Both the position numbers and the translations under genes were made by a program. A stretch of DNA of 64,000 bases, from the NCBI GenBank assembly GCA_965228855.1, contig CBDDIJ010000002.1:384001-448000 (forward strand). Reading direction: 5' to 3'. This document shows positions 1,456 through 59,972 of the stretch, one piece after another. The number at the start of each line of letters is the position of its first letter. The stretch's first letter is position 1. The notes under the pieces are model-generated. The model was not told where the DNA came from, did no database searches, and saw only the letters and a list, made by a program, of their open reading frames with translations. This DNA comes from Candidatus Obscuribacterales bacterium (GTDB taxonomy: Bacteria; Cyanobacteriota; Vampirovibrionia; Obscuribacterales; Obscuribacteraceae).

Positions 1456-1721
1456 CTACTATAGTAGACAGTCTAAATTTCCTACCAGAAGAATCCCGAG
1501 ACGCAGCAATAGCAGCCCTTTCAAGATTTAAAACATATCCCACGTCAATTCAAATTCTATTTTGTCGCTGTCAGATAGCCGGATTTTCAGGAAAGCGTCA
1601 TACTGGGATAGACACGGCTCGTCCAGAAAAAGGGAACAGATGTCGAAGATGCGCTGCTGCCCCACCACATCGCAACTTCAGCATTTCGGACTTTTATAGT
1701 AGACACGGTTGCTTATAGTAG
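1456..1721. repeat. Composite palindromic element, locus 1 (54-bp core 1562-1615; arms CTACTATA 1456, TATAGTAG ending 1702 and 1721)
   Basis: TTGTCGCTGTCAGATAGCCGGATTTTCAGGAAAGCGTCATACTGGGATAGACAC aligns with the other 11 cores. Confidence 0.8.
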
Positions 1722-1735
1722 AGAAAGTTGGGAGA

Positions 1736-1763
1736 CGAGAGCCCCAACTTAATGGGGCTCTCG
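1736..1763 (-). terminator. Stem-loop downstream of the SPFH pair
   Basis: CGAGAGCCCCA-acttaa-TGGGGCTCTCG perfect 11-bp stem; weak U-tract. Confidence 0.6.
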
Positions 1764-1817
1764 AAACTCCGCTTCTGATGAACGTTTCCGTTCCGTTCAA
1801 TCAGTCGCGAACTGGGC

Positions 1818-2693
1818 TCACTTCCCCTTGCGCGGGTCGAGATTGATGAACGGGATCTCGCCTTCGCTCATGTACTCGGGGACTTCGCCATCCCACTTCT
1901 CCGCCCGGCGCAGCTCGAGGAGGCCGGCGGCATCCTTGAGCGCCTCGCCCTTCAGCTGGATAGCCGTCGCGCGCGCCTTGGAGAGAAGTTCGGTTTCGTA
2001 CGCGCGGGCATCGGCGATCTTCTTCTTCACGTCACCGGACGCGCGAGCGATCGTAGCCTTCTGGAGAGCTTCGCTCTCGGCCTGCTGCGCACGCTGCTCG
2101 GCCTCGACCTTCGAGTCGATGGAGTCGTTGAACTCCTTCGAGAAATCGAAGTCGGTGATCGCCACCATGTTGATGACGATGGCGCCGGCGAGACCCTTTT
2201 CAGCCAGGGCACCTTCGATCGCCTTGGTGAGCTCCTGAACGACGCGGTCCTTGACCTCGGGTCGCTTCTGGATGAGCTCCTCGGCGAGGTAGCCGCCGGT
2301 GACCTGCTTCAGCGCCTGCTGCACGTTGTTGTCGAAGTACGCGGCATTGATGGCGGCGACACCACCCACGGTGGCATACACGCGCGGCCACATATCGTCC
2401 TTGATCGAGTAGGCGACGGTGATCTCCGTCGGCGCCGACTGACCCTTCACGGTCGCGGCAGCAGCCTTGATGTGGTGGACGAGCTGCGTGGTCGGCAGCT
2501 GCACGACGCTCTTCAGGGGGCTGATGATCATGGGACCATCGCCGCTCTTGACCGGGGTGGGCTCGACCGAGCCGAACTGCGTGACGACGCCGACGTAGCC
2601 CGGGTTGACCCAGGTGACAGTCCGCGCAAGGAAACCGAGGCCGATGACCGCGGCGACGCCCACACCGATGAGGGCAATCTTCTTGGTGTTCAT
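1818..2693 (-). CDS. SPFH/prohibitin (band 7) family membrane protein
   Basis: N-terminal TM helix, VNPGYVGVVTQFG, ITDFDFSKEFNDSIDSKVEAEQ coiled coil, EKWDGEVP; GAAGGA RBS. Confidence 0.9.
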   Translation of the reverse strand: MNTKKIALIGVGVAAVIGLGFLARTVTWVNPGYVGVVTQFGSVEPTPVKSGDGPMIISPLKSVVQLPTTQLVHHIKAAAATVKGQSAPTEITVAYSIKDDMWPRVYATVGGVAAINAAYFDNNVQQALKQVTGGYLAEELIQKRPEVKDRVVQELTKAIEGALAEKGLAGAIVINMVAITDFDFSKEFNDSIDSKVEAEQRAQQAESEALQKATIARASGDVKKKIADARAYETELLSKARATAIQLKGEALKDAAGLLELRRAEKWDGEVPEYMSEGEIPFINLDPRKGK

Positions 2694-2716
2694 GTCCGTA
2701 ATTCCTTCTCGCTCGA

Positions 2717-3613
2717 TTACTTCGACGGGGTCAGCATGGGAACAGGCATCGTGCCGGAATACTTCGGCAGCTTGCCCTTCCAGCGGCTGATCGCGGTGAG
2801 TTCGACCAGGTCGGGATTCTCGCGCAGAGCGGCAGCCTCGCGCTTGATGGCGTCGGCTTCCTTCTTGGCCAGCTCGACGGTCGAGTAGGCTTCGGCTTCC
2901 GCGCTGGCGCGAATGCTCTGAGCCTCACCCTCAGCCTCGGCGACCATCTTGGCGCCCTCGTTGCGAGCACGCTCAGCGTCCTGGCCGGCCTTCACCTTCG
3001 CCTCGATGGCAGCGGCGAACTTCGGCGTGAAGTCGAGGTTGTCCAGGGTGGCGCGGCCGATCTGGATCGAGCCCGGAGCGCCCTTGGACGTCATCGAAGC
3101 GGCGACGTGCGCGCGAATTGTGGACTCGATTTCATCGCGAACGGTTTCGCGCCTCTTCACGAGGTCGGTGGCCGAGAAGTTGGCCGTCACAGCCTTGACC
3201 GATTCCTGGATGGCAGGATCGAGAATGGCAGCCTCGAAGTTTTCGATCGTGCCATATTCGCGGTAGAAAACCGGCGCCTGGGTGTCGATCAGGTTGTACG
3301 GGACGGTGACCACGGTCGTGACCTTCTGCAGGTCATGCGAGCCGGAATTGGCGGTCGCCTTCTTGGGATTGACGAACGTCTGCAGCAGGTCGACCCGCGA
3401 GAGCGGATTGACGATGTTGAACCCGGGGGCCAGCGGCTGCGGATTCATCACGCCGAACAGCGACGTCGCACCCACGTAGCCACGCGGCACGATCTGCACC
3501 GAGTTCCAGCCGGCGATCACCAGAGGGATCGCGATGAGCGCGTACTTGATCAGGCTCAGGGGGTTGAACGGAGCGGCTCCATCCGAACGCCCGTTGAGGA
3601 AGGGAATCTTCAT
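2717..3613 (-). CDS. SPFH/prohibitin (band 7) family membrane protein, paralog
   Basis: VPRGYVGATSLFG, SHDLQKV, NLDFTPKFAAAIEAKVKAGQ, RWKGKLP; start moved to the ATG at 3613 behind an AAGGA RBS. Confidence 0.9.
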   Translation of the reverse strand: MKIPFLNGRSDGAAPFNPLSLIKYALIAIPLVIAGWNSVQIVPRGYVGATSLFGVMNPQPLAPGFNIVNPLSRVDLLQTFVNPKKATANSGSHDLQKVTTVVTVPYNLIDTQAPVFYREYGTIENFEAAILDPAIQESVKAVTANFSATDLVKRRETVRDEIESTIRAHVAASMTSKGAPGSIQIGRATLDNLDFTPKFAAAIEAKVKAGQDAERARNEGAKMVAEAEGEAQSIRASAEAEAYSTVELAKKEADAIKREAAALRENPDLVELTAISRWKGKLPKYSGTMPVPMLTPSK

Positions 3614-3984
3614 CACATCATCCTTGAAGTTGGTTGCGTTGATGCCTGCTCGATTACATTCATTCCAACCCGAAACCGTTCGCGATTCCCTCCACGCAAG
3701 CCGATCTGAGCTCGCGTAAAGGAAATTCGGCTGTCGCAAAGGGGAATTCGGGGTGCGGAAACTTATGCAAATGAGAAACAAGGCATGCCCGTATGTTATG
3801 AAAGTCGCTCTTGGCTAGTTTGCAAAATCGTATTAACTCGGACGGTTTACCCTCCTTTACATCCTTCAAACAGCCCCGCCCCTCGAAACCATTAAGCGAT
3901 TCAAATCCGGCACATGAACCACCTCTCAGCTCGCTAAGCTCACGCAAACAGAGCCTTCCTCCAATATGACTTCTTAGAACCTTT

Positions 3985-4274
3985 CTACTATACATTTTCG
4001 TATCACCAAAATACTGCAAACGACTGCTGCGATGGTCTTTCGAGAATTACGCAGCAAGCAGAACGGGCTTCAAGAACCCGTTTGGCAACGACAGATAGAC
4101 GGAATTTCAAGAAAGCGTCATTCCAGGATAGACAAGAAGCGACTAGACTTGGGTCACATCCCCCGGAAGCTAGACGGGCGCACGAACATGACCCTATCTT
4201 CTATAGTAGCACTTCGGACCATCTACCCCGGAAGCTGGACGGGCGCACGAACATGACCCTATCTTCTATAGTAG
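3985..4274. repeat. Composite palindromic element, locus 2 (core 4082-4135; arms 3985, and ending 4209 and 4274)
   Basis: TTGGCAACGACAGATAGACGGAATTTCAAGAAAGCGTCATTCCAGGATAGACAA; the right arm is duplicated. Confidence 0.85.
4161..4274. repeat. Direct repeat, two 49-bp copies (4161-4209, 4226-4274)
   Basis: CCCCGGAAGCT(A/G)GACGGGCGCACGAACATGACCCTATCTTCTATAGTAG, one mismatch. Confidence 0.95.
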
Positions 4275-4289
4275 TCACTCGTGGGAGAC

Positions 4290-4314
4290 GCGGGGCGGTG
4301 AGGCACCACCCCGC
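4290..4314 (-). terminator. Stem-loop downstream of 4323..5348
   Basis: GCGGGGCGGTG-agg-CACCACCCCGC. Confidence 0.5.
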
Positions 4315-4322
4315 TTTGGAAA

Positions 4323-5348
4323 CTATCGCCTCGATTCGAACTCGCGCTTGTCGTCTTCCGTGAGGAGACGGAACGCGGGATCGCTGAGGAAGCGCACCGG
4401 CATGATCGGGTCGAGTAGACCGGTTCCAAGCCCGAGCAGCCCCGTTCCGTAATCGTTGGTCTTGATGCCGAGCCGATGATAGAACTCGAGACAGACGCCG
4501 ACGCAGGTCCAGTGGTCGGTGTGGCGCTGACCCGCGAAGAGACCGACCCAGTCGTAGCCGGTGACACGGAACTTCGCGCGCAGTTTCTCCTTCCAGGAGG
4601 TCGGCAGCGGCAAGCGGTTGATAAACCGATCACGCCCAGCCTGCGCCTGACAGCGCCAGGCCTCGTTCTGCGCGAGAAGAACCTTGACCAGGTGCGGAAT
4701 CATCGCCTTCTGGTCGTCCGTCAGCGTTGCATTGAGCCGAAGCACAATGTAGTGCCCCTTGCTCGCCAGGCTGCCGGCGACGCGCGACGCTTCCTGCAGC
4801 ACCGTGCCCTTCTCCATGTAAGAGCTGAGCAGGTAAACAGTTCCGTCCGGCATCCTCACCGCCACTTCGCCATGCCCGACAGTCTCGCGCAGGCGATTGG
4901 CCATGTTGCCGGAGGTGAGAATGAGCTCAAGGTTTCCGGTGAGCGCCTCGACGGGCGGGTTGACCCATGCGCCTTTCGGCAACGGACCATGCCCCTGCAC
5001 CCTGTACTTCTGCCGGTTGCGACGGTAGAGAACATAGATGGTGAGCCAGGCCGCGAGTTCCACACCCGCGACGATCTGGAGCTCAAAAACACCCTGCCAG
5101 AGCGCAAGTCCCGACATGACCACGCCGAGCGTGATCGGAATCGTCATTTTTAGACGGGAGAAGACATCGAAATACGTGCGAAACAGATGACCGAGTTCGG
5201 AAGCGGTCAACGCAATCCAGAACGCGCTCACCAGAACACAACTCAGGCTGAAGCCCCAGGAAAGATTGCCGTGGAACCACTCCCAGGTCAGCCAGATCAA
5301 AGCCAGGTACGCGAACGACGTCGCGACCTTTTTGAGCCGATAGAGCAT
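4323..5348 (-). CDS. Four-TM membrane protein with a C-terminal permuted NlpC/P60 (YiiX/YebB-like) domain
   Basis: Hydrophobic N-terminus; His (VGHGEVAV) precedes GYDW and HWTCVGVCLEFY, the permuted papain-like order. Confidence 0.55.
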   Translation of the reverse strand: MLYRLKKVATSFAYLALIWLTWEWFHGNLSWGFSLSCVLVSAFWIALTASELGHLFRTYFDVFSRLKMTIPITLGVVMSGLALWQGVFELQIVAGVELAAWLTIYVLYRRNRQKYRVQGHGPLPKGAWVNPPVEALTGNLELILTSGNMANRLRETVGHGEVAVRMPDGTVYLLSSYMEKGTVLQEASRVAGSLASKGHYIVLRLNATLTDDQKAMIPHLVKVLLAQNEAWRCQAQAGRDRFINRLPLPTSWKEKLRAKFRVTGYDWVGLFAGQRHTDHWTCVGVCLEFYHRLGIKTNDYGTGLLGLGTGLLDPIMPVRFLSDPAFRLLTEDDKREFESRR

Positions 5349-5834
5349 ACGATTATCCCTTCAGGTGAGAGATTTGAGCCGTTATGAACGAAACCACAGC
5401 TACTTGCGATTGCGCCCAACGACTGGAGTCAAACTCGACACGAACTTCTCCGCCTGCCTGGAAACAGAATCGAAGCGACGAAGTTAGTGAGGAGGAGTTC
5501 TTTGAAAAGTTCAGGTAACGGTGGCTAAAAGAACAGTGATAACGCACGTTATGAATTCAAGAGACCTAGAGTCAATCGAAACTAGTTTAATTGCTGTCAA
5601 GAGTTCGATCGCGTTGCTCGACCGGCACACAGACTAGTCTCAAGATCAAAACAACAAACCTTCAGACAAAAACCGCAAACGCCCGCCAGCAATGCGTCCT
5701 CGAATCAGCACCCACAATTTCCCGAGATGATAGCTGCGCTAGCGAAAGCCAAACGTTGAACCGATTTAAGCGAAACCGCGCTCTCTTCCTGCCGAGATCG
5801 GGTAAGTTATCCAGAGGAATCCTCGAATGCCGGA

Positions 5835-6494
5835 GTGGAAAAAATGCGCGCACCATTACTACTTGCCGTCGCAGCAGCGATACTACCCCTGGTATCAGCT
5901 TGCCAGAAGCCGCCAGAGAAAATCGTCGTAAAACTCGAGCCAACGACAAAAGCGGATTACGGCTTTTCAATCGACATGCCCGTCCCATACGTCGAAAGAG
6001 ACATTTCCTGCGGAAAGTGTCTCTACTACAACACACCACTTGGAACGTACAAAGTCGTAGTGAATATGTTCACGATGGCGATGTCCAATTCCTCGACCGC
6101 TCAAGCGCGAATGAATCGAGACCGAATGCAACTTCAGTCTCTTCAAGCACATGCGGGTACTTACGTTGACGCACTAAGTTCGCGTGGTTCCAAGACTATT
6201 TTGTTGAACTACAAACATCAGGGGTTCGAAGACAAAGGCAGCACAAACATCATCCCAAGTCCTGATGGACACCGGCGCTTGCGCACGAAGTGGGCAGACA
6301 ACGAAATTATTCTGAACGACTCGAATCCTGTCGGCGAGTACATAATCCGAGGCTACGTCGGAGAAAACGCCATCTACACAACATCCGTAGAAGGACGACC
6401 GGAATTCGTCAACACGCCGGAAGCCACACAGTTCCTGGATTCCTTCAAGATCGTCGGCTCATCGGCCCTGCCGCCAGGCAAAGCCGCGCCGTAA
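5835..6494 (+). CDS. Hypothetical lipoprotein
   Basis: Signal peptide ending in lipobox LVSAC; the start may be ATG 5844. Confidence 0.65.
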   Translation: MEKMRAPLLLAVAAAILPLVSACQKPPEKIVVKLEPTTKADYGFSIDMPVPYVERDISCGKCLYYNTPLGTYKVVVNMFTMAMSNSSTAQARMNRDRMQLQSLQAHAGTYVDALSSRGSKTILLNYKHQGFEDKGSTNIIPSPDGHRRLRTKWADNEIILNDSNPVGEYIIRGYVGENAIYTTSVEGRPEFVNTPEATQFLDSFKIVGSSALPPGKAAP

Positions 6495-6509
6495 GGCGAC
6501 AAATCCTGT

Positions 6510-6745
6510 CTACTATAAGACAAAGTATCCACAAAGTCCGAAAGGCCTTGTTCTACAATGCTTCCCGCTCTGCGACGTCCAATTACTGCGTCACTTGTCT
6601 ATCTGGCTATGACGGATTTGCCGAAATCCGTCGCTCTCCCGTAGCCAAGCAAGCAGGTTTCGCGCACACTCCGACGACGCACTCGCTGGAAACCCATCTC
6701 TCCCAGACCTTTCGAGGATCGCTATATACCCACTCTTTATAGTAG
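6510..6745. repeat. Composite palindromic element, locus 3 (core 6595-6648)
   Basis: TGTCTACTATAA (6507) ... TTATAGTAGACA (6748) 12-bp inverted repeat around TTGTCTATCTGGCTATGACGGATTTGCCGAAATCCGTCGCTCTCCCGTAGCCAA. Confidence 0.9.
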
Positions 6746-6756
6746 ACAATCCGGAG

Positions 6757-8109
6757 CTAGAAGCGGGTCACTTCGGTGAAATTGAAATCAGCAACTTTCA
6801 TCGCCGGCACCACCTGGGGAACACCCTCTTCACCAGCCGTTCGCCGAGGTTTACCGGATGAAACGATGTTGTTCAGCAATTCGATCAAGCTGACGTTGAA
6901 TCGCAAGTTCTTGATTCCGCGCGTGACTTCGCCGTTCTCCACAAGGAAAGTGCCATCGCGTGTCATACCAGTCACGATTTTGCGCGCCGGATCAACCTGA
7001 CGAACATACCAGACCCGTGTGAGGAGAATGCCTTTCTCAGTGCTTTTTACAAGATCATCGACACTTTTGCCTTCGCCAGCGATCACGAGATTCATAGGAT
7101 TATCGCCGAGCGAATTCGGCTCCGGAAGACCGTGTCCGGTAGGCGCAACACCCATGCGGTTAGCACTTCGGCGACCGTAAACCAGATTTCTCAAGACACC
7201 TTCTTCTACAATTTTGACTTTTTTGCGCGCCAGACCCTCGCCGTCAAACGGGCATCCAGCCTGCTGCGGATGGTAGACGTCATCCTCGATGGTGACATTG
7301 CTGCCGAACACTTTATCGCCCACTCGATCGAGCAAAGAAGAGCGTTTATCAAGATGGCTCGTTCCCGTAAAGTCCCACCAGAGGTACGAAAGCAGGTCGA
7401 GAAACGCGGAATGTTCCAAAATCACAGTGTAGCGCCCGGGCGTTATTCCTTCCGGACTGCTCGACGCCTTCGCCTTAAAAGCAGCTCTGCGAGCCAACTC
7501 CAGCGTATCGACCATCTGAAGGTTCGGACCTTGCGCTTTCGCCCAACCCGTCGAATCTTGCCCGCACATCGTCACAGAGCACTCTACATGCGTCTCACGG
7601 TGATAGCTGAATAAACCCTTTGAATTGCCCAGCGCCTCAAAAGCAGTTCCACTGGCATAAACACCTGCAGCTGACAGCTGACTCTCGCTGGCAACCGCAA
7701 TCATGCGCGAAATCGCAGCGGCTCGATCGGCGGCGGTGACGCTCAACACATTCGCCTCATACCGGTCCGGGTAAGAATGCCACTCTCCATCGTTGTCGGA
7801 AACAGTCAACGGAAGCAGACACTGATCCTTTTCCATCAGCTTTACAGCGCTAATAGCACCATCCACAACAGCGCATACGCCGGTCGTCGACAAATCATCT
7901 GTTTCCAATCGAATCTGGCGACCGTTGGACAGCACTCGCACAGCCAGCTTATCAATGGTATTCGCTTGATGCTGCGTCATCTCATTGTTAGCGAAGCGGG
8001 ACGTTTCGACGTCGGTGCCCAGCAAATGTACTTCGATTCCCTCGACGCTCTTACCAGCGTGGTGAATCGCAAGGTCGACAATCTTACGGGCTGATTGCTC
8101 AGTTAACAT
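6757..8109 (-). CDS. tldE: TldE/PmbA family protein
   Basis: SRFANNEMTQ, PFDGEG, VTGMTRDGTFLVENGEV; paired with tldD. Confidence 0.85.
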   Translation of the reverse strand: MLTEQSARKIVDLAIHHAGKSVEGIEVHLLGTDVETSRFANNEMTQHQANTIDKLAVRVLSNGRQIRLETDDLSTTGVCAVVDGAISAVKLMEKDQCLLPLTVSDNDGEWHSYPDRYEANVLSVTAADRAAAISRMIAVASESQLSAAGVYASGTAFEALGNSKGLFSYHRETHVECSVTMCGQDSTGWAKAQGPNLQMVDTLELARRAAFKAKASSSPEGITPGRYTVILEHSAFLDLLSYLWWDFTGTSHLDKRSSLLDRVGDKVFGSNVTIEDDVYHPQQAGCPFDGEGLARKKVKIVEEGVLRNLVYGRRSANRMGVAPTGHGLPEPNSLGDNPMNLVIAGEGKSVDDLVKSTEKGILLTRVWYVRQVDPARKIVTGMTRDGTFLVENGEVTRGIKNLRFNVSLIELLNNIVSSGKPRRTAGEEGVPQVVPAMKVADFNFTEVTRF

Positions 8110-8118
8110 TCCCTTCTC

Positions 8119-9567: not shown

Positions 9568-9690
9568 ATCTCTCACTTGAATTGGGCTGTGCCGCGCGCA
9601 ACTTCGTGCTCGAAGCCAAGACCATCCAACAGGACGGCGCACGCGACCCTATTAGACCACGCCAAAAAAACAGGCCCATCTGCCACAAGG

Positions 9691-10335: not shown

Positions 10336-10375
10336 TTCATCTCCACGCCGGTGAGCCAGCCGATTGAACCGGTTT

Positions 10376-11842: not shown

Positions 11843-12071
11843 GGTGAGACTGTACTCTCTTTTATCGGTGATTGATGCGGCTCCAATCGGTTTAAACCTA
11901 GTACTTAAACACGATTAAATCCAGAGGGGTCAGTATATCGCGTGGCAAAAGATTATGCCTTTTCTTTTTGCCTGGTGTTAAGGCCTTGGCTATACTAGGT
12001 GAGAAAGTTCGGCTTCGCGGCCATGCGACGCGTCGTACTTTCGTCGCACCTCATCGGATCAAGGAGACCAC

Positions 12072-13100: not shown

Positions 13101-13106
13101 TGCGAT

Positions 13107-20587: not shown

Positions 20588-21046
20588 CTACTATATGATC
20601 CCGTTTTTCCCGCCGCCCTACTATATGATCTCGTTTCTTTTCAACGACCGCTGACACCCGGCTAGCCTTGTGGCGCAACCAAGGACAGCCTCGCTCCCGT
20701 CCAGGGCACTCGTCGCAAGGCACTTTTGGCTACGTAGCGTAGACGGATTTTCAAAAATCCGGCAACGCCACAGCGCCAAAACGCAGTTGATCTCACTTTA
20801 AAACGCAACCAAAGCGGACTAAAAACCAGACGAACTCTGACTTCTAGCGCATCCACGCTATCCTACGGCATCTAGTAGCTATGCAACAGGCACTTTTGGC
20901 TACGCTGCGTAGACGGAATTTTCAAAAATCCGGCAACGCCACAGCGCCAAAACGCAGTTCGCAAACCTCAAACTGAAATCAAACGCCCAAGAACTAGTCT
21001 CACTAGGTCCTTTCAAGGAACGAGCTTATACGTCGGCTTATAGTAG
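20588..21046. repeat. Composite palindromic element, locus 4 (two cores, 20726-20779 and 20896-20950)
   Basis: AGGCACTTTTGGCTACG..GCGTAGACGGA(A)TTTTCAAAAATCCGGCAACGCCACAGCGCCAAAACGCAGTT twice, 170 bp apart; arms CTACTATA 20588 and 20618, TCTAGTAG 20871, TATAGTAG 21039. Confidence 0.9.
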
Positions 21047-30047: not shown

Positions 30048-30297
30048 CTACTATAAAGCCCAGTGTTTCCGTTTCTTCCAAATCGCACTCTGACACAGGG
30101 TTTAGGATGCCACTATGTGCGAGCTCAATCGATTTTGTCTATCACACGATGACGAATTTCGCGAAAAGTGTCATCTTGTCGTAGACAGACTCAGAGTTTC
30201 CGCGGTCAAAGCACCCGGGACTCGTAGCAAAGAAGCGCTCACCCACTGCTTTTAAGAGCGGCAGGACGCTAGCCAAGTTTACTTGTCTTTATAGTAG
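30048..30297. repeat. Composite palindromic element, locus 5 (core 30135-30188)
   Basis: TTGTCTATCACACGATGACGAATTTCGCGAAAAGTGTCATCTTGTCGTAGACAG; arms CTACTATAAAG...CTTTATAGTAG (11-bp inverted repeat). Confidence 0.9.
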
Positions 30298-31946: not shown

Positions 31947-32175
31947 CTACTATGGAAAACCCAGTTCATTTTTCGAGCGTGTAATCGAAGGGTGGCGACC
32001 AGTTTCACAAAATGCAGTCCCATCACCTGCCTCGGTTGTCTATCACTCGTTGACGGATTTTCGAAAATTCGTCAACGAGCGATAGACAAAACTATTCAAG
32101 CGAAACTGACGGCGAAGCGAAACATGCACACAATCAGCCTTACCGACTCAAAGCAACCACGAAGGCATATAGTAG
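31947..32175. repeat. Composite palindromic element, locus 6 (core 32036-32089, near-perfect palindrome)
   Basis: TTGTCTATCACTCGTTGACGGATTTTCGAAAATTCGTCAACGAGCGATAGACAA; arms CTACTATG 31947 and TATAGTAG 32168. Confidence 0.95.
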
Positions 32176-41757: not shown

Positions 41758-42467
41758 CTACTATATCCGAGAGTGTCTTGCTACTCCCGTCAAATCCGTT
41801 CAGGATAGGCATCTCGGGAATTTTGATGCGATCGCAAACCAGATAAACTGGTGATTTGTCTATCGCTCAATGCCAGTTTTGAGCAGATCCGTCATTCAGG
41901 GATAGACAGAATTCAAAACTTGTCTACTATATCCGAGAGTGTCCCGCCACTCCCGTGAAATCCTTACACGATAGGGTTTTCTGGGATTTTGACAAGATGG
42001 CAAACCAGGTAAACGTGGTTACTTGTCTATCGCTCAATGCCAGTTTTGAGCGAATCCGTCGTTCAGGAATAGACAGAATTCACGGTTCGTCCCGTATAAA
42101 GATCGTTCTAAAATAGTCCGTGAGATTCTCGCGGTGGAAGCAAGCGGCCATGGCTTGGCCGCCAGGCTGTCAGCTCACAGGCTAACCGTGCTTGGCTTTG
42201 GACAAGAGCCATCGCTCTTCTAATTCCGGTTTCAGTCTCGGCTTAAATTGTAGTTACTCCAATTTAAGAGGAGAACGTTCATTTTACAGATAACGTAAGA
42301 ACGTCCTTGTCTACGCCAGATAGACGATTTTGGCGAATTCCGGCATTCTGGCATAGACATACCTTGCCGTTCCTTCTGTATCGCGGAGTCCACGTTCGCG
42401 CATCGCGCCAACTGGAGCCAACTGCCGAGGCTGGTTCCGCCGGAGACACTATGCCTCTCTATAGTAG
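41758..42467. repeat. Composite palindromic element, locus 7 (three cores: 41856-41909, 42023-42076, 42307-42360)
   Basis: A ~160-bp arm+core unit is tandemly duplicated (41758, 41924); third core TTGTCTACGCCAGATAGACGATTTTGGCGAATTCCGGCATTCTGGCATAGACAT; TATAGTAG 42460. Confidence 0.9.
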
Positions 42468-51580: not shown

Positions 51581-51634
51581 ATAAGATTTCCATGTTCGAA
51601 CACTAGATGCCCGCGGACCAGCATCTATCCGATT

Positions 51635-52270: not shown

Positions 52271-52468
52271 AAAAACCTCGGTTTGATAAGCCTGAACGAT
52301 AAAAAATACGGTGGACACCCAGTCAGGAGACTAGTCTAACAGATCTGTTCAAACTGGTGTCAGTTGCCAGCCAGGCGCCCGCCGACACGCTTGACGACGT
52401 GTCGATAAAACAAAGCATTATCGGTTCTATCGCCTGCGCAACTCGAAAGTACGGTAAAATCTGTCGCC

Positions 52469-53596
52469 ATGAAGAAGCGCATAATGTGTGTGTTTGGAAC
52501 GCGTCCCGAAGCTGTCAAGTTGGCTCCGGTGGTTCACGCTTTGAGAGAGTCGGAAAAAGTAGAACCTGTTGTCGTTCTCACAGCCCAACATCGAGAGATG
52601 TTGGACCAGATGCTGAAATGGTTTCAAATCACACCGGACCACGATTTAAACTTGATGCAGCACGGGCAAACCCTCGCGCAACTCACCAGCCGCGTCGTAA
52701 TAAGCGTCGATGAAGTTCTGGAAAAGGTGAAGCCGGATTTGCTTCTCGTGCAAGGCGACACGACAACTGTGATGGCCGCCTCGCTGGCTGCCTTCTATCA
52801 GAAAGTACCGGTCGGTCACGTCGAGGCTGGGCTGCGCACAGCCGATCGCTATAATCCGTTCCCCGAAGAAATGTCGCGCAGACAAACCAGTCAGATAGCC
52901 AGTCTGCACTTTGCACCGACCCAGCTCGCCGTCGACAATTTGAAACGCGAAGGCATCACTGAAAACGTCTTTCTTACCGGCAACACCGTCATCGATGCTT
53001 TGCTTGAAACCTCGCGCAGGCTAGCGGATACCCCGGTCGACACCTCACTTTTCGGCAAGGTAGACTTCGAGAAATTCAAAGTTCTTCTCGTCACCGCGCA
53101 CAGAAGAGAGAACTGGGGTGAGTCCATGGACGAGATAGCAAGAGCGTTACGACAGATCGCAGATGAATTTCCCGACGTTCAAATCCTCTATCCGATTCAC
53201 AAAAATCCTGTCGTCAGGCAGTCAATCGAACCAGTCTTTCAGGGACACGACAGACTGATTACAATAGAGCCACTTGACTATGTTCCGTTCGTCTATGCGA
53301 TGAAACGCAGCTATCTGATTCTCACAGATTCAGGTGGAATTCAGGAGGAAGCGCCGTCGCTTGGCAAACCGGTTCTGGTTATGCGCACGAACACTGAGCG
53401 CCCGGAGGCAGTGAACGCCGGTGCTGCGCGACTGGTCGGAGTCAAATCGGCCGGAATAGTTGAAGGCGCTCGCGCACTTATCGGAACACCTGAGAACTAT
53501 GAAAAAATGGCTTGCGCCATCAATCCATTCGGCGATGGCAGAGCCGCCAGGCGCATAGTTGAAGCCATCGAAGACTTTCTATGTATTAAGAAATAA
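52469..53596 (+). CDS. wecB: UDP-N-acetylglucosamine 2-epimerase (non-hydrolysing)
   Basis: FGTRPEAVK, QGDTTT, HVEAGLR, PFPEE, HRREN, TDSGGIQEE, NPFGDG. Confidence 0.96.
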   Translation: MKKRIMCVFGTRPEAVKLAPVVHALRESEKVEPVVVLTAQHREMLDQMLKWFQITPDHDLNLMQHGQTLAQLTSRVVISVDEVLEKVKPDLLLVQGDTTTVMAASLAAFYQKVPVGHVEAGLRTADRYNPFPEEMSRRQTSQIASLHFAPTQLAVDNLKREGITENVFLTGNTVIDALLETSRRLADTPVDTSLFGKVDFEKFKVLLVTAHRRENWGESMDEIARALRQIADEFPDVQILYPIHKNPVVRQSIEPVFQGHDRLITIEPLDYVPFVYAMKRSYLILTDSGGIQEEAPSLGKPVLVMRTNTERPEAVNAGAARLVGVKSAGIVEGARALIGTPENYEKMACAINPFGDGRAARRIVEAIEDFLCIKK

Positions 53597-53768
53597 CTAC
53601 CACCCTGTTTTTTAGCGTTATGATCAATGCGGTGAGTTTGCTAAATCAAAACCACGAACGTGATCAGTCGCGTCCCCCTTGCCCCTGGGTCGCGCCGAAG
53701 TCCGAAAGCGACCACGCAAAAGAGGGAAGTTAACCCTGGCAAAAACAGGGTCAGCAAGGAGAACAACG

Positions 53769-54944
53769 GTGAGCACCATGATTACAAGTCAGGACGTTTT
53801 ACCATTCGGCGAATTCTTAAACGATGATCACCACGCGATCAGAGAAATGGTGCGCGACTTCGCGACCAAGGAAATTGCGCCGAAGGCCGCAGAAGTAGAC
53901 AAAGAAGCCCGCTTTCCGATCGAAACATTCGCCAAACTTGGCGAACTCGATCTTCTCGGTCTAACTGTTGACCCCGAATATGGTGGCGCCGGGGCAGATT
54001 ATCGCAGCTACGTTATAGCAGTCGAAGAGATCGCAAGAGCTTGCGGAAGCACCGGATTGAGCTACGCGGCCCACTGTTCGCTTGGAACGAATCCGATCAA
54101 GCTGTTCGGAACAGAAGAGCAGAAGAAGAAATATTTGCCCAAACTTGTCTCCGGAGAATGGCTTGGTTGCTGGGCATTGACGGAACCTGGAACAGGATCG
54201 GATGCTGCAGCCCAGAAGACAACCGCTAAGCTTGTTGGCGACCAGTATGTTTTAAACGGCACCAAACAGTTCATCACCAACGCAACTCACGCGAAAGTGA
54301 ACATCATTATGGCGATGACGGATCAGTCGGAAGGCAAGAAAGGAATTTCTTCCTTCATCGTGGACGAAGGCACGCCCGGCTTTTACGTTTCCAAAGTCGA
54401 AAAGAAAATGGGCATGAAGGGCTCGCCGACTGCCAGCTTGACTATGGAAGACTGCAAAATCGGCAAAGGCCAGCTCATCGGCGAGGAAGGGGATGGATAC
54501 CGGCAAGCGCTCACAACGCTCGAAGGCGGACGCCTCTCTATCGCGGCACTCGCTCTCGGCATAAGCCAGGCGGCTTTCGATGCAGCTCTCAGCTACGCGA
54601 ATCAACGCGAATCATTCGGTGTTCCGATTGGCAAACACCAGTTTATTCAAGGCTACCTCGCCGACATGTCGACGCAGATTACCGCTGCCAGACTGCTTCT
54701 CTATCATGCTGCCTGGATGAAGGATCACGGCAAGCGTGTCACTCTCGAAGGCTCGCAAGCAAAGCTATACGCTTCGGAAGTATCTTCAAAAGTAACCAAC
54801 CTGGCCGTGCAAATTCACGGCGGCTACGGATACGTAGAAGACTTCCCGGCAGAGCGCTTCCTTCGCGACGCTAAGCTCTGCGAAATCGGCGAAGGCACTT
54901 CGGAAATCCAACGCCTGGTCATCGCTCGTCAGCTCGGCTTGTAA
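53769..54944 (+). CDS. Acyl-CoA dehydrogenase
   Basis: LTEPGTGSD, NGTKQFITN, QIHGGYGY, RDAKLCEIGEGTSEIQR. Confidence 0.95.
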   Translation: MSTMITSQDVLPFGEFLNDDHHAIREMVRDFATKEIAPKAAEVDKEARFPIETFAKLGELDLLGLTVDPEYGGAGADYRSYVIAVEEIARACGSTGLSYAAHCSLGTNPIKLFGTEEQKKKYLPKLVSGEWLGCWALTEPGTGSDAAAQKTTAKLVGDQYVLNGTKQFITNATHAKVNIIMAMTDQSEGKKGISSFIVDEGTPGFYVSKVEKKMGMKGSPTASLTMEDCKIGKGQLIGEEGDGYRQALTTLEGGRLSIAALALGISQAAFDAALSYANQRESFGVPIGKHQFIQGYLADMSTQITAARLLLYHAAWMKDHGKRVTLEGSQAKLYASEVSSKVTNLAVQIHGGYGYVEDFPAERFLRDAKLCEIGEGTSEIQRLVIARQLGL

Positions 54945-54978
54945 TTTATCGCGCCGAACGGCTCGGAAAATAAACATT

Positions 54979-55015
54979 AGCGAAGAGACCGCGGCATGGC
55001 CGCGGTCTCTTCGCT
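54979..55015 (+). terminator. Stem-loop after the acyl-CoA dehydrogenase gene
   Basis: AGCGAAGAGACCGCGG-catgg-CCGCGGTCTCTTCGCT 16-bp stem. Confidence 0.65.
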
Positions 55016-55046
55016 TCTGGGTAGAATGAAAACGGGTTGGCAGTTA

Positions 55047-56183
55047 ATGACAAAACGCGCAATTGTCGATAAGCATCTAAAACCGGCATTGCAAGCCGGT
55101 TTCATTGTGCTGTTTGCTTTTAACGGCAATGCCTGTGCCGCACCCCTACATTCGCATGCGGAAAAACAGGCCGCAGTTAAAACTGAAACTGCGAAAGCTG
55201 CTGCGTCAGCTGGAACTCGCGAACCTGAATCAAAATCCAGAGCGATGTTCTATCTGCACCAGGCCCAAGATGCACAAAAACGACAGGACCACGGCGCCGT
55301 GCTGGATTTCTGCAGGAAAGCACTGGACATTGATCCCAAATTCGCTATGGCCTACGCGGTCCGCGCCAGGACTTATATGCACAGAAAGCGCTGGGACAAG
55401 GCAATAGCCGATGCCGACCGCGCGATCAGTTTAGATCCAAAAACATCACTGGCGTATGTCGTGCGCGGCAAGAGTGGCTATCTAAGCGGGCTCGAGTCAA
55501 ACGAGAAAGTGCAGCGAGATTTTGCAGAGGCGGTTCGGATTGACCCGAACGATTCGGACGCCAATTTCTACCTGGGCATAATGTTCACGGTCAGCAAGAA
55601 CTATGAGCTTGCCGTCAAACATTTGACGGTAGCAGCAAAGTACGACCCGTCAAACAAAAACATCTTCCAGTATCGCTCGGCGTGCTACACGTTGATGAAA
55701 AAACCGGATCTGGCGATAGCCGATCTCTCAACAGTGATCCGGATAGACCCCAAGGCTTATGAGGCTTATGCAACGCGCGCGGATGTTTACTCGCGTTTAG
55801 GGAAGAACGAACAGGCAATCGCAGACTGCTCGGAGGCGATTAAGCTCAAGCCCCGCGATTACACCTTGCGAAATCTGCGAGCCTCGCTGCTCATCAAAAT
55901 GGGCAAACATGCCGACGCAATCAAGGACTTCACCGAAGCAATTGCACTCAACCCTCTGGATGAAGACCTGTTCTTGAGGCGAGCGAACTCTTACGCGGCG
56001 CTGAAAGAGTACGAGAAGGCAGTCGCCGACTACTCTGAGTCGATAAGCCTGGAACCGGACTATGAGAGCGCATATCGCCTCAGATCCAAGGTTTACGACT
56101 CGCTGGGTAAACGGGACCTGGCGGCAAAAGACCGCGCCCGAGCCGCCGAACTGAAGAAACTCCCCGCCGAAAAACGGATCTAG
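55047..56183 (+). CDS. Secreted TPR-repeat protein
   Basis: About 8 canonical TPRs (AIADxxxAIxLDP); start uncertain (54996, 55026 or 55047). Confidence 0.9.
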   Translation: MTKRAIVDKHLKPALQAGFIVLFAFNGNACAAPLHSHAEKQAAVKTETAKAAASAGTREPESKSRAMFYLHQAQDAQKRQDHGAVLDFCRKALDIDPKFAMAYAVRARTYMHRKRWDKAIADADRAISLDPKTSLAYVVRGKSGYLSGLESNEKVQRDFAEAVRIDPNDSDANFYLGIMFTVSKNYELAVKHLTVAAKYDPSNKNIFQYRSACYTLMKKPDLAIADLSTVIRIDPKAYEAYATRADVYSRLGKNEQAIADCSEAIKLKPRDYTLRNLRASLLIKMGKHADAIKDFTEAIALNPLDEDLFLRRANSYAALKEYEKAVADYSESISLEPDYESAYRLRSKVYDSLGKRDLAAKDRARAAELKKLPAEKRI

Positions 56184-56191
56184 GCCCAGCC

Positions 56192-56309
56192 CCCTCCCTA
56201 CTACTCCATTTAAAACTGCTAAGCGTCCAAGAACGCCTCCCTACCGAGATCCCTTCCTACTACTCCATATAAAACTGCCAAGCGTCCAAGAACGCCTCCC
56301 TACCGGGAT
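56192..56309. repeat. Tandem 59-bp duplication containing the left arm of locus 8
   Basis: CCCT(C/T)CCTACTACTCCAT(T/A)TAAAACTGC(T/C)AAGCGTCCAAGAACGCCTCCCTACCG(A/G)GAT twice. Confidence 0.95.
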
Positions 56310-56502
56310 TGCAGGGGACGAGGGAAATTCCACTCCGGAGTTTGGCTATCCTGCATAGACGGATTTTCGAAAATCCGTCTATGCAGCGTAGCCAAAGCCA
56401 GGGTCAAGGCGGCTGCGGTTCCGATTGGAATCGCGCGATGGCTGACCCTGCTGCCCTTCTGAGTCTTAACACGCTCGAAGATTCTAGTACTTCCTATAGT
56501 AG
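56198..56502. repeat. Composite palindromic element, locus 8 (core 56342-56395)
   Basis: TTGGCTATCCTGCATAGACGGATTTTCGAAAATCCGTCTATGCAGCGTAGCCAA; arms CTACTACT 56198 and 56257, TATAGTAG 56495. Confidence 0.95.
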
Positions 56503-56519
56503 ACTTGTTCTTAAAGAAA

Positions 56520-56561
56520 AGCGAGGGCGAAGCAGCCTGGGGAGCTGGTTTCGCCCTCGCT
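56520..56561 (-). terminator. Terminator downstream of 56671..57315
   Basis: AGCGAGGGCGAA...TTCGCCCTCGCT followed by TTTCTTT on the minus strand. Confidence 0.7.
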
Positions 56562-56670
56562 GGGTCGGGAGGATTCAGGCATTCGCGAACGCGGCCTGGG
56601 TGGGTTTGGAGCCCGCAAAGTGAATCGCGGGTCTCCAGCTTCTGTTCTCACCACTTGCGTCGTCGCCGGA

Positions 56671-57315
56671 CTAGATGTCCAGAACGATGACGTTTTCCGT
56701 CGGTTGATACTTCTCCGTCAGACAGGCGGCATTGACGAAGGTCGTGCCGTTCTGCTCCGTGACGCCGGCAGAGTGATGGACGTGTCCGAAACAGTGAACC
56801 TTCGGGCGAACCTGAAGGACACGTTCGAGCAGGAACTCATCTCCGAGCGTCGGCCAGAGCGGCGCGCGGTCCAGAATGCCTTTGGGCGGACCGTGCGTCA
56901 CGAGGACATCGACATGGTCAGGAACCTTCTGCCAGACGGCGGCCAGTTCCGGAGAACTGCGCGGCAGGTTGAATGCCCACTTGCGATACTCGGGTTGCCA
57001 CGGACTTCCGTAGATGCGGAGGCCGGCGAGCTCGACGAGTTCATCCTGCAAGTAAACGGCATTGGTAAGCAAAGCACGAGCTTCCGCGTTCATCTGCTCG
57101 AACACGGTTTCGTGATTGCCAGCAACGACAACCTTGAAGCGGTGAGGCAATTCACCGAGCTCCCGGTTGAAATTTGCGACTTGGCTGAGATGTTCAGATG
57201 GCGTTTTTGCCTCCACTCGCATGGTGAAGTCACCGCAGTGGATCAGCATGTCACCGTCCGGCACCTTCACTCTGCCAAGTCTGTTGTGAGTATCGCTCAC
57301 AAAGACCAGTCTCAT
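56671..57315 (-). CDS. Metallophosphoesterase (MPPED/239AB-like)
   Basis: SDTH, HCGDFT, AGNHE, YGSPWQP, THGPP, FGHVH. Confidence 0.92.
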   Translation of the reverse strand: MRLVFVSDTHNRLGRVKVPDGDMLIHCGDFTMRVEAKTPSEHLSQVANFNRELGELPHRFKVVVAGNHETVFEQMNAEARALLTNAVYLQDELVELAGLRIYGSPWQPEYRKWAFNLPRSSPELAAVWQKVPDHVDVLVTHGPPKGILDRAPLWPTLGDEFLLERVLQVRPKVHCFGHVHHSAGVTEQNGTTFVNAACLTEKYQPTENVIVLDI

Positions 57316-57847
57316 ACGCTATTCGCTCCTCTTGCTTTTAGCCGATGTTATTGAAAGAGGCACAGCGAAGCTACTTCCGATAGCGACGACAAAGACAAGC
57401 CCAAAGCAAAAGCCTGTCGAATGTCATCGCTGCGGGACGTCGCCAGCAAGGCGTATCACAACACACATCACGGCGATGTATGTGTTACCTGCTTTTAGTG
57501 CTGTTGCTGTCTTGGAAACCTGGGTTTAGTTGCTTAGCGAGTTGAAAGAAATATCGATAAAGCGAACCTAGCTCTTATGTGCGTAAGTATCAAGAAACGC
57601 TCTGGACCTAGTATTAAACTTTGGATTAAATCTGGTGAGCGGGGCTTAAGCTGAAATCTTAAACACACACCAGTTCAGCGTTTCGAGCCCAGACTATCGC
57701 TAACTACGCGAACTGTTGGTATTTCGCCTAAAATATACCTCGGTCGAAACCGAACAGCCTTGCATCTAGCGACGTTAGCAGGTCCGCGCGCCCACTTTTC
57801 AACTTTGGATACCCGTAGACTTTTGTGCAATTACCAGGGAGTACAAC

Positions 57848-58597
57848 GTGAACCAGGTAAGCCTTTACGCCATGCCTCTTTTTGCGTTTGTGGCCGCCCT
57901 ATACTCCTCAGTCGGACATGGTGGAGCAACTGGGTATCTGGCGCTAATGTCATTCATGGACATGCCACCGCAGGTGATGTCAACCACGGCGCTTATTTTA
58001 AATCTGCTAACTGCCGGAATCTCATGTTTTGTCTACGCCAGAGCCGGATTTCTGTCAATCAAACTGACTTTTCCGTTCATCCTGGCCTCGATACCCGCAG
58101 CCCTTGTCGGCTCAATGGTGCCGATTAGCGAACGACAATACAGTTGGATGTTGGCGGCAGCCCTGATAGTCACGGCTGCATTACTGATCGGGGCGAAACG
58201 CAAGACTCAGGAGGCGACGTCATTTGCTTCACCTCCGCCGCTTTACCAGGGCGGTCTGGTTGGAGCTACTCTCGGCTTCGTCTCCGGCGCTATCGGCATA
58301 GGCGGAGGTGTTTTCCTCAGTCCGATCATCATTCTCATGCGCTGGGCTGATACGAAGACGACTTCAGCGACCGCGGCTCTATTCATAATCGCAAACTCGA
58401 CATCCGGTCTAGTTGGTCGCACCCTGGCTGGAACCCTGGCGTTCGGAAACGTGCTGCCATTTTTACTGTGCGCATTTGTCGGCGCTGTCGCCGGATCCAT
58501 CTGGGGAGCGAAACTGTCCAGCGCCACGAAACTCAGACTTGCGCTTGCAGTGGTTCTTCTGGTGGCCGCAGTGAAGATGTTTCTCCCAAAATCTTAG
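57848..58597 (+). CDS. Sulfite exporter TauE/SafE family protein
   Basis: YSSVGHGGATGY, GFVSGAIGIGGGVFLSP; about 8 TM helices. Confidence 0.9.
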   Translation: MNQVSLYAMPLFAFVAALYSSVGHGGATGYLALMSFMDMPPQVMSTTALILNLLTAGISCFVYARAGFLSIKLTFPFILASIPAALVGSMVPISERQYSWMLAAALIVTAALLIGAKRKTQEATSFASPPPLYQGGLVGATLGFVSGAIGIGGGVFLSPIIILMRWADTKTTSATAALFIIANSTSGLVGRTLAGTLAFGNVLPFLLCAFVGAVAGSIWGAKLSSATKLRLALAVVLLVAAVKMFLPKS

Positions 58598-59127
58598 CAA
58601 TCACCGCATGTAATACCAGCAACATGTTCACAACAGGCTGTTCACCTCGAGTTCACATTGAAGACTGCGCTAACTGAGCAATGTCAGCTTGCACCGAATG
58701 CGCTTCATGACAGCATCGTTTTTTGTTTATTTTTGTCCGGCGCGAGAGGTCTAGATGTCCAATGGCGCCGGCTTTCGACCAGATATTTACATTTGTGAAA
58801 GAACGTTGTTGCGGGAGCTTCATAAAGCTGGAGCTTTGTTCCCGACACCGTAAGTGGTACCACACAGTCACTTCTTCTTTCAATTCCCGGACGTCCCCTG
58901 CACATTTACCAATAGCCAGTTCTGCGCCAATCCAAACACTTTCCTTCCAGCCTGCGGCCGGAAGAATTGTGCGGCGTTCGGTGAATGGCTGAATTGCGAG
59001 ACTGGGGACGTTAAACATCTGGAGAACTGAATGAACGGGTAGTGAGCAGAACCTAAACGCAGCGCAGCTTTCTCGGTACTGACTCGTCGTCAGGCCGGTT
59101 GTGCAACCCTCCATAAGAGACCTCCGC

Positions 59128-59625
59128 ATGAGCACAAGAATCGAAAAAATTATCTACGCATCACGATGGCTGCTCGCGCCGATCTATCTGGGTCTGGCGT
59201 TGGGCTTGCTGTTGTACGGTGTTCGCTTTGTCGCAGAACTCTGGCACCTCGCCCACGATGTTCTGACGGCATCCGATGAAAAAATGCTGTTGTCGGTGCT
59301 GCATCTGATCGAAATCGCCATGCTCGCGAACTTCATGATCATGGTCATAATCGGCGGCTTCGCACTCTTCGTGAAACAGCTAAAGGGCGAAGCCACGCAG
59401 CTGCAGTGGCTCGACCATATCGACCCAGGCGTCTTGAAACTCAAAATGAGTATGTCTTTGCTGGGCGTCTCAAGCGTTCACCTCTTGGAGGCCTTTGTGA
59501 ACGCTGCTTCCGTCACGACGGGGACTCTGGCGAAGCTGCTCGTCATCCATCTGGTTTTCGTCGCATCCACAATGGCAATCGCGTGGGTCAACCGCATCGG
59601 TCGCCGAGAGCCGAACGACCACTAA
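59128..59625 (+). CDS. TIGR00645 / UPF0114 (YqhA) family membrane protein
   Basis: ASRWLLAPIYLGL, IAMLANF, LKLKMSMS, SSVHLLEAF. Confidence 0.9.
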   Translation: MSTRIEKIIYASRWLLAPIYLGLALGLLLYGVRFVAELWHLAHDVLTASDEKMLLSVLHLIEIAMLANFMIMVIIGGFALFVKQLKGEATQLQWLDHIDPGVLKLKMSMSLLGVSSVHLLEAFVNAASVTTGTLAKLLVIHLVFVASTMAIAWVNRIGRREPNDH

Positions 59626-59660
59626 CGCTTCCTGAACGGGGCGTTTTGAAGTAGTCCCTG

Positions 59661-59708
59661 GAAGGGCTGTAGGTCCGGATATCCGGCTCTGCAGCCCTTC
59701 TTTTTTTT
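59661..59708 (+). terminator. Intrinsic terminator
   Basis: GAAGGGCTGTAG...CTGCAGCCCTTC followed by T8. Confidence 0.85.
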
Positions 59709-59725
59709 CCAGCCCAGCCGCTCAT

Positions 59726-59972
59726 CTACTAAAGTATCTAGTTTCTAAAACAGTCCAAAAGCAGTCATGGCAGCTGGTTTCCACTTTCACGTCCGTCACT
59801 TGCTCCGCATTGGCGGCGTGGCGATGACGCTTTCGGCGAAATTCGTCAATGCCCGATAGACAAGATCTAGTTACAAGCATGCTCGATTGAACGGAGAAAA
59901 CCGGAAAGCATTAGCCCCACAGCTGCGCTGGACTCCGGCGGAGTTCGAAGCCCCCGCTATATTACCTAGTAG
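59726..59972. repeat. Composite palindromic element, locus 9 (core 59810-59863)
   Basis: TTGGCGGCGTGGCGATGACGCTTTCGGCGAAATTCGTCAATGCCCGATAGACAA; arms CTACTAAA 59726 and CCTAGTAG 59965. Confidence 0.8.

Follow-up and report, generated by a model that had tools for sequence, protein, structure and literature searches.

A probable mobile unit of helically phased arms and cores in the origin domain of an Obscuribacterales genome, and a candidate nuclease for its spread

Why should intergenic palindromes in a bacterial chromosome be accompanied by short inward-facing arms that lie at certain distances from them and never at others? The question is raised by a stretch of 64,000 nucleotides (the window; C2:384001-448000) of a Candidatus Obscuribacterales genome, here labelled G000 and placed in that order from the label of its closest relative. 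The host lineage is a relative of the cyanobacteria that does not carry out photosynthesis. The arm, the 8-mer CTACTATA, has 19 occurrences in the window where chance would give 0.18, and a scan of the window with Rfam and for tRNA gave no match. The initial annotation proposed helical phasing of the arms around each palindrome (here described as a 56-bp dyad-symmetric core), implying a looped or wrapped nucleoprotein complex, with either lambda attP-like recombination sites or a promoter with a distal activator site as models. The observation is genuine and extends beyond the window; the models did not fare as well. What is argued for here is a non-autonomous mobile unit, with a nuclease that joins a phospholipase D (PLD) domain to a helix-turn-helix (HTH) domain as candidate for its spread. 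The assembly is 95% complete with about 6250 predicted genes, gene orientation counts rest on the gene calls made for this analysis, and the main comparison is with G007, a sister lineage about 95% identical.

With distance taken from the core centre to the outer edge of the arm, the values first listed were recomputed for 10 of the 11 ungapped cores of the window and all match; three of the arms then listed (at 56257, at 59972 and with the second core at 20895) are degenerate 8-mers or lie next to a core with a 1-bp insertion. Genome-wide, the 182 non-redundant exact arms are not spread uniformly. They form four classes with mean distances of 101.0, 112.35, 123.65 and 135.0 bp, and the step is therefore 11.3 bp. 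None of the 182 lies at 103-109, 115-119 or 127-132 bp, where a smooth curve would place 46% (the gaps were picked post hoc), and the same gaps are empty in G007 (0/109 arms) and nearly so in a third, metagenomic, population (4/77), though most of these sites are orthologous and not independent. As to the ranges earlier given as empty, 127-132 bp is so, whereas within 117-122 bp the positions 120-122 are occupied by 19 of the 182 arms. Likewise the predicted periodicity of 10.5-11 bp holds as periodicity and not as to 10.5, Rayleigh Z being 121.6 at 11.5 bp versus 104.6 at 10.5 bp. An elevated helical repeat is described for tightly bent and protein-looped DNA (PMC10888926). A phased complex, looped or wrapped, is supported as a prediction by the 11.3-bp steps, by phased A/T tracts present in the unit and by selection on the motif letters.

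Cores were gathered genome-wide with a weight matrix that started from nine palindromes of the window, in an ungapped scan that misses a core with a 1-bp insertion. There are 210 above 22 bits (211 above 14 bits), of which 174 lie between C2:77k and 1121k, a 1.04-Mb domain (about 13% of the genome; -0.72/+0.33 Mb relative to the replication origin) around dnaA, which at C2:793k coincides with the GC-skew switch. That the arm is tied to the core, as first supposed, holds generally: 232 of the 292 exact 8-mers lie within 450 bp inward of a core (187 at 95-140 bp, 45 beyond 140 bp) and only 60 are orphans. Two arms accompany 62 of the cores, one arm 117, and 31 have none; an armless subtype with 23 cores in G000 builds 73-bp arrays. 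All 160 clusters lie between genes, 68 of them in convergent, 78 in co-directional and 14 in divergent settings, the convergent share comparing with 76 of 402 long intergenic regions of the domain. Arms follow 151 of 618 gene ends inside the domain versus 9 of 976 sampled outside, and a hairpin of -10 kcal/mol or lower, an unconserved terminator beyond the arm, stands upstream of 90 of the 126 arms that face a 3′ end, most commonly with a gap of 12-16 nt. Such hairpins are also frequent outside the domain (295 of the 976 sampled ends), where 2 of them have an arm.

This placement bears on the promoter model. The phased spacing, the likeness of TATAGT to a -10 box and the position of the duplication window described below, which falls at the would-be start site, all speak for an activator site plus sigma70 promoter. 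However, 151 of 208 arms (73%) point at gene 3′ ends, and those that face starts do so from 24-876 bp away without a peak. The invariant arm letters are CTACTA, whereas the positions critical for a -10 box (-12, -11 and -7) vary and read C in relatives; the logo has no -35 box, and no canonical sigma54 activator was found.

The family is narrowly distributed. The core pattern occurs in 2 of 41 genomes (G000 and G007), a stricter version matches one genome of the GTDB collection (a Ca. Obscuribacterales), and 56 metagenome loci with the pattern are nearly all 81-98% like G000. No core was found in the viral contigs searched, nor in the syntenic stretches of six congeners, several of which keep a CTACTAC-type motif with a downstream CGT after the same terminators.

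The arm opens an ungapped module of about 64 bp, just after terminators and identical in the 112 and 124 classes, that consists of CTACTATA, MGTAT at +14-18, CCnAAA at +29-34 and TTTnGG at +53-58; outside it spacers are 33-36% alike versus 25% after shuffling. Each core half is G[TG]C-N11-G[AC]C (17 bp), the halves lying 33 bp apart around two A/T tracts. Across 160 cores there is no excess of cross-dyad pairing at the two-letter (K/M/W) positions 4, 18 and 21-23 (z 0.8, -1.3, -3.0, -3.3 and -0.5), a weak excess at positions 6-16 and 27 (z 1.6-7), and full pairing of the 5-mer in 7%. An RNA or single-stranded DNA hairpin role was rejected on this covariation analysis, and the arm module's own dyad shows no covariation either. 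In 70 core pairs between G000 and G007, at least two of them mis-paired, positions 5, 17 and 19 changed 1, 0 and 0 times in 140, and two-letter positions changed only within their own alphabets (18 only A to C or back, 8 times; 9 only C and G, 8 times; 23 only A and T, 9 times), while four-fold sites differ at 12%. Because its two-letter positions show no covariation and change only within their own alphabets, the most fitting reading of the core is a pair of operators sharing one face of the helix, and such a double-stranded operator pair is a prediction in which considerable confidence can be placed. Alternation between G and T, the keto bases, is consistent with major-groove reading of duplex DNA. 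The arm is similarly constrained, its letters 0-7 having changed 1, 0, 0, 1, 0, 2, 2 and 1 times in 88. A separate observation is that the positions flanking the 19-bp arm motif (-3..-1 and +19..+23) differ in 22-37% of orthologous pairs, 2-3 times the four-fold rate; mis-paired tandem copies may contribute.

Such selection invites the explanation that these are host sites, organising the chromosome or insulating supercoils, at which a host protein, possibly a domesticated form of the candidate nuclease, binds core and arm after terminators and bends or bridges the origin domain, duplications being a by-product of polymerase stalling. The origin confinement, the convergent bias, the concentration of arms after gene ends of the domain, the selection at each locus with almost no decayed cores and the failure to find a chromosomal ParB in G000 all favour it, as does the use by gyrase of periodic DNA and BIME-2 repeats (PMC6379681). 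But the search for ParB likewise gave nothing in 23 of 24 relatives, most of them core-less (nearly all), while rpoB, tuf, atpD, gyrA/B and the single rRNA operon lie outside the domain, and the gyrase motif is degenerate versus the near-invariant CTACTA. The core is missing in six congeners, and a whole element in one related strain. Stalling alone would furthermore leave unaccounted for the copies with the same ends 200-800 kb apart. As an alternative to mobility the host-site explanation is thus given a minor, if real, share of the probability. The strong per-site selection and the scarcity of decayed cores imply, nonetheless, that the host may now use the sites; host function and mobility can both hold. 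Two narrower proposals, replacement of ParB and service to highly expressed genes, were dropped, the former as not specific and the latter as those genes lie outside the domain.

Evidence that the units move comes from copies. In G000, 18 pairs of units at different loci have spacer identities of 0.60-0.90 (the 99th percentile for random pairs is 0.53), and in them homology begins at the C of CTACTATA, reaching 0-4 nt outside the arm in 18/18, and stops near the far edge of the core, 0-12 nt past it, in 17/18. Local arm-to-arm duplications number 121 in G000 and G007 together, 71 of them partial, stopping in the spacer, and 50 with a core, for which the usual periods are 145-146 or 156-159; the lengths of the partial ones show no phase. 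For 104 of the duplications (17 array-internal ones dropped) the left breakpoint is a window from -10 to 0: identity is no higher than background to the left of -11, amounts to 0.40-0.57 over -10..-1 and reaches 0.84-0.98 over +8..+15. Strains may bear unrelated half-units at one locus, as if by allele replacement. The type example of the window (6510..6745; arm 6510-6517 at distance 112, core 6594-6649, arm 6738-6745 at 124) lies in a segment, 6491-6754, that is absent in a related strain, in which two convergent stops abut (joint 6490-6755, one contig, run X5); on that single contig 264 nt are swapped for 2 nt, with no clear direct repeat. Arm, spacer and core together are, from these comparisons, very probably a mobile, phased and non-autonomous repeat unit.

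For the attP model, swaps of an 11-nt block in half-cores, sometimes exchanged wholesale, and the frequent location of G000/G007 rearrangement breakpoints at elements are what might be expected. It is not supported by the copies, which run from the arm to the far edge of the core, taking in the whole core and not half, rather than crossing over in the core. Moreover no resolvase was found (0 matches in a family search of G000), and the genus at large has Xer-like genes comparable in length and score. Promoter and attP readings together are regarded as very improbable. The first impression that the repeats are unlike a recently spread MITE (miniature inverted-repeat transposable element) was right as to age, but the units nonetheless move.

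Two other origins of the duplications were considered and dropped. For small double-stranded circle intermediates, the tandem periods of 73, 83, 145-146 and 156-159 are whole turns of linear DNA, and the idea was given up because 73 and 83 bp are half-integral lengths for circles (PMC10888926). For a lagging-strand origin through Okazaki flaps, a hand count gave no replichore bias (31/87, 19/65, 6/30, 5/28).

What might move the units? The genes lying between neighbouring cores were listed and 177 filtered proteins among the 822 of the domain scanned. The resulting candidate is a 257-aa PLD (HKD) nuclease with a C-terminal XRE HTH, at C2:103074-103847, bracketed by two halves, arm-core at 170 bp on its upstream side and core-arm at 35 bp on its downstream side. 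It has the HxKxxxxD and GSxN motifs, the PLD fold and a Cys/His cluster; 27 homologues all keep H107, K109, D114, S122 and N124. The model (predicted local distance difference test score 90) has NucT, Zucchini and Nuc among its leading fold matches, and the HTH is nearest to those of C.BclI and HipB. There are five PLD-HTH paralogues in G000, all inside the origin domain, and in G007 a 54% paralogue is flanked by two arrays of the armless core subtype. The clade of the candidate occurs only in G000 and G007 among 104 family genomes (next best 37%), as does the paralogue at C2:1042.6k, which has arrays of a 102-bp dispersed repeat on both sides. P0002, P0003 and P0005 are additional homologues, 53-76% identical, and distant ones occur in 17 of 24 family genomes. 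Of 23 homologue loci outside these genomes, 10 have strong tandem repeats, versus 18 of 173 control windows (p=2e-4), the controls coming from different genomes than most of the loci. The PLD-HTH protein is, on balance, the putative binding protein of the unit.

As side observations, the remaining paralogues, at C2:66-67k, 918k and 1002.5k, have local repeats of their own (38-39-bp arrays, repeats of about 40 bp, a duplication of about 170 bp), and that at C2:918k has lost the catalytic HxK. The 102-bp family has 30 matches, between cores or replacing them (C2:145.6k, 218.9k, 318.2k, 572.6k, 907.9k, 1040.8k, 1043.7k; C5:885.5k, 1605k).

Alternatively the same unit could be moved by another enzyme, such as a divergent HUH protein, the Xer-like paralogues, IS110 recombinases or a reverse transcriptase (RT), unrecognised or missing from the assembly, the PLD-HTH gene then being captured cargo or an autoregulated nuclease with a core-like operator. 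A fixed start with a variable stop fits the rolling-circle model of amplification by TnpA-REP (PMC3333891), the assembly is not quite complete, cores serve as insertion sites for two IS110 families (7 copies), and the domain holds a retron-type RT as well as two Xer-like genes whose catalytic residues are altered. Nevertheless Y1 (PF01797; 0 matches among 10 candidates) and Y2 (PF04986; 0 at E 0.1) gave nothing in G000, like the resolvase families, and a local HUH motif screen gave one match, weak and unconvincing. Of the 17 PF00589 matches in G000 none is shown specific to core-bearing genomes, the comparison being by size and score only. The small GIY-YIG gene at C2:2134.5k occurs genus-wide, and its nearest core is some 130 kb away (the other two GIY-YIG proteins are long and UvrC-sized). 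The RT is truncated in G007, yet G007 has more tandem copies, and as driver it was rejected. The ends of IS110 family 1 differ from those of the unit, and that family is younger than the units because its three copies are identical. A different mover is judged unlikely.

Some of these genes deserve description in their own right. In the two Xer-like tyrosine recombinase paralogues (C2:369775-370713 and 923144-924055) Lys replaces the first catalytic Arg and Gln replaces the His of HxxR. The RT (C2:944459-945628) has a C-terminal extension and an upstream region of only 116 bp, and its truncation in G007 is by a deletion ending just before an arm. The IS110 copies, three identical ones of family 1 (C2:774.7k, 858.6k, 1120.8k) and four of family 2, a 70% relative (C2:197.2k, 987.7k; C5:861k, 1461.4k), are situated within cores or next to them; for the copies whose ends were read, the insertion point is the outer G-A-C box in family 1 and the inner one in family 2, and G007, L122 and L152 have intact cores. 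These insertions constitute a natural bridge-RNA target set.

How a PLD enzyme could copy DNA is suggested by BfiI, in which a 5′-phosphohistidine is held, the 3′-OH freed and the intermediate resolved by a DNA 3′-OH, so that DNA ends can be joined (PMC2475615). The polarity is that of the rolling-circle model for amplification of BIMEs (bacterial interspersed mosaic elements; PMC3333891), and by analogy the published PLD chemistry would allow rolling-circle-like copying. The scheme favoured here starts from what the analysis established (geometry, selection on motif letters, common copy ends, adjacency of gene and repeat, invariant catalytic residues, fold). HTH dimers would occupy the two 17-bp operators of the duplex core, and the spacer would be bent or looped so that the nuclease domain meets the arm, which would be possible only at whole turns of about 11.3 bp. 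A nick in one strand, within about 10 nt 5′ of CTACTATA, would yield the 5′-phosphohistidine and a free 3′-OH, from which host polymerase would extend inward until it stalls, variably or at the far edge of the bound core. The displaced 5′ end would then be joined by the enzyme to the new 3′-OH, giving a tandem copy, or to a 3′-OH just past another terminator, giving a new site. Since the core is symmetric, two opposed half-units may share one. Taken whole, as a nick-and-copy mechanism driven by the PLD-HTH protein, the scheme is a candidate whose chances are a little under even.

A number of observations weigh against this scheme. The PLD-HTH gene is tied to the repeats by association only. 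The scan for other enzymes took in 177 filtered domain proteins of the roughly 6250 predicted genes; about five stretches are bracketed by cores, and the others hold a TPR (tetratricopeptide repeat) protein, an unannotated protein or no gene. The co-distribution of gene and core counts as one event because G000 and G007 are sister lineages, and other genes, e.g. the retron-type RT, share it. G000, despite its 23 armless cores, is without the paralogue that G007 has between armless arrays. Elsewhere in the family, 13 of the 23 homologue loci have no strong repeats, nor is there any enrichment of arm-like motifs there (7 in 76 kb versus 55 in 593 kb). From the side of the repeats, the fixed end is a window of about 10 nt rather than one bond, and units turn over slowly, each of the 38 clusters (of 46) that could be mapped being retained in G007, with differing copy numbers. 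The near absence of decayed cores is odd for a purely selfish repeat. Arm-core distance is unchanged between G000 and G007 in 62 of 85 cases, so no more stable than other intergenic windows (277 of 369), and arm-like motifs follow orthologous terminators in core-less relatives 14 times versus 2-3 after shuffling. Confinement to the origin domain is left unaccounted for by the favoured model.

Comparison with known systems places the unit near several without identity to any. Among them are the REPtrons, in which repetitive extragenic palindromic (REP) sequences, in BIME and REPIN arrangements, are paired with TnpA-REP (RAYT). In both, species-specific palindromes lie between genes, at 3′ ends and in convergent intervals, and are amplified in tandem; a nuclease gene has its own repeats at its borders, and insertion sequences target the repeats (PMC3333891, PMC3733652). 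A GTAG inside the arm and a CGTC-like box inside the core add to the likeness. Here, however, no Y1 gene was found, the candidate enzyme being PLD-HTH, the core lacks hairpin covariation and a maintained stem, the GTAG is 65-100 bp outside the core edge and not at a hairpin foot, and the unit is of 130-170 bp with quantised spacing and origin-domain confinement.

IS91/ISCR rolling-circle elements have one fixed and one variable end, occur in tandem copies and capture neighbouring DNA. The unit resembles them in all these respects, its fixed end being fixed within about 10 nt, but no Y2 transposase was found, the palindromic operator core comes with helical phasing, and there are hundreds of non-coding copies. 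With the GIY-YIG nuclease Ssn (SsnA) and the NTS/dRS3 and CGTC-tagged repeats it has in common a small nuclease gene flanked by lineage-specific repeats (PMC11893778, PMC3733652). Ssn targets are short single-stranded hairpins, while the site here reads as a double-stranded operator pair, and the gene that is flanked is the PLD one, the GIY-YIG gene having no flanking cores. The candidate shares a single HKD motif with GSxN, and the fold, with BfiI, Nuc, NucT and Zucchini, and HTH similarity with C.BclI and HipB; BfiI cuts 4-5 nt outside its own site and transesterifies. What sets it apart is the combination of PLD domain, Cys/His cluster and XRE HTH in one protein, and its predicted neighbours included no adjacent methyltransferase. 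Two-armed copies resemble 240-bp MITEs with 8-bp terminal inverted repeats, but it is half-units, from arm to core edge, that are copied, 117 of the 210 cores are one-armed and interiors are as little alike as stated above. In its manner of working the unit thus recalls REPtrons and non-autonomous IS91-type elements, and yet it falls outside both as they are defined, and likewise outside MITEs and Ssn repeats. In the literature searched there was no report of a repeat-mobilising role for PLD nucleases and no description of this element or of a PLD-HTH/repeat pairing, most subscription journals lying outside the coverage.

The other elements of the window, all like the type example listed without strand, illustrate the range of forms (class distances in brackets). 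Two-armed ones lie at 1456..1721, between convergent genes (arm 1456-1463 [133], core 1561-1616, arms 1695-1702 [114] and 1714-1721 [133]), a site where L149 carries an unrelated arm-spacer-core allele; at 3985..4274 (arm 3985-3992 [124], core 4081-4136, arm 4202-4209 [101]), with an extra 65-bp partial duplication ending in arm 4267-4274; at 30048..30297 (arm 30048-30055 [114], core 30134-30189, arm 30290-30297 [136]), for which L131 has another allele (102/136); and at 31947..32175 (arm 31947-31954 [116, one mismatch], core 32035-32090, arm 32168-32175 [113]). The element at 20588..21046 has duplicated arms at 20588 and 20618 [135], core 20725-20780, a second core with the 1-bp insertion at about 20895-20951 and arm 21039-21046; it is downstream of an rseP-like gene, where relatives retain only an arm-like motif. 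At 41758..42467 there are tandem half-units (arm 41758 with core 41855-41910, arm 41924 with core 42022-42077) and, after 228 bp of other DNA, a third (core 42306-42361 with arm 42460-42467 [134]). A duplicated degenerate left arm (56198, 56257) precedes the near-perfect core 56341-56396 and arm 56495-56502 [134] of 56198..56502, and 59726..59972 has arm 59726-59733 [111, one mismatch], core 59809-59864 and a degenerate right arm to 59972.

Several features of the wider genome may also be recorded. The origin domain (C2:60k-1.13M) is about 55% G+C versus 50% elsewhere, with repeat-rich windows 34/200 versus 5/200. The stretch matching C2:122-566k, window included, is missing from G007. Contigs C4, C1 and C6 and C2:1-60k depart in composition from the rest (29-66% G+C) and are possibly plasmid or contaminant DNA. 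Two RpoB-like genes are recognisable by motif (C3:2668579-2672370 and C5:142266-146150), with only one GyrA-like and one GyrB-like gene in G000. The core-less congener G002 has its own tandem repeat family of about 38 bp (C94:1-445, 44.6k, 91.6k, 149.4k; C101:97.4k), one array of which ends near TATAGTAG and a terminator.

At its broadest the proposal is that Obscuribacteraceae hold a family of PLD-nuclease/XRE-HTH 'transposases', each paralogue spreading its own intergenic repeats by phosphohistidine nicking and rolling-circle copying within a helically phased loop of double-stranded DNA, a counterpart of REPtrons, with a chemistry that is not known to serve transposition, that has paved the origin domain of this lineage. 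This is put forward tentatively, as something that may well prove otherwise. Even without the enzyme, the roughly 240 natural spacer variants are an evolutionary read-out of an 11.3-bp looping period. To our knowledge transposase chemistries comprise DDE, tyrosine, serine, HUH and RNA-guided RuvC-like ones; if the chemistry holds, a PLD phosphohistidine enzyme would add a new class, a small, metal-independent and site-specific nick-and-join activity. It would then also hint at where mobilisers might be sought for repeat families that have no dedicated transposase, e.g. CGTC-tagged repeats (PMC3733652). For the organisms themselves, a repeat domain confined to the origin, in a class mostly without ParB, is a testable lead on chromosome organisation.

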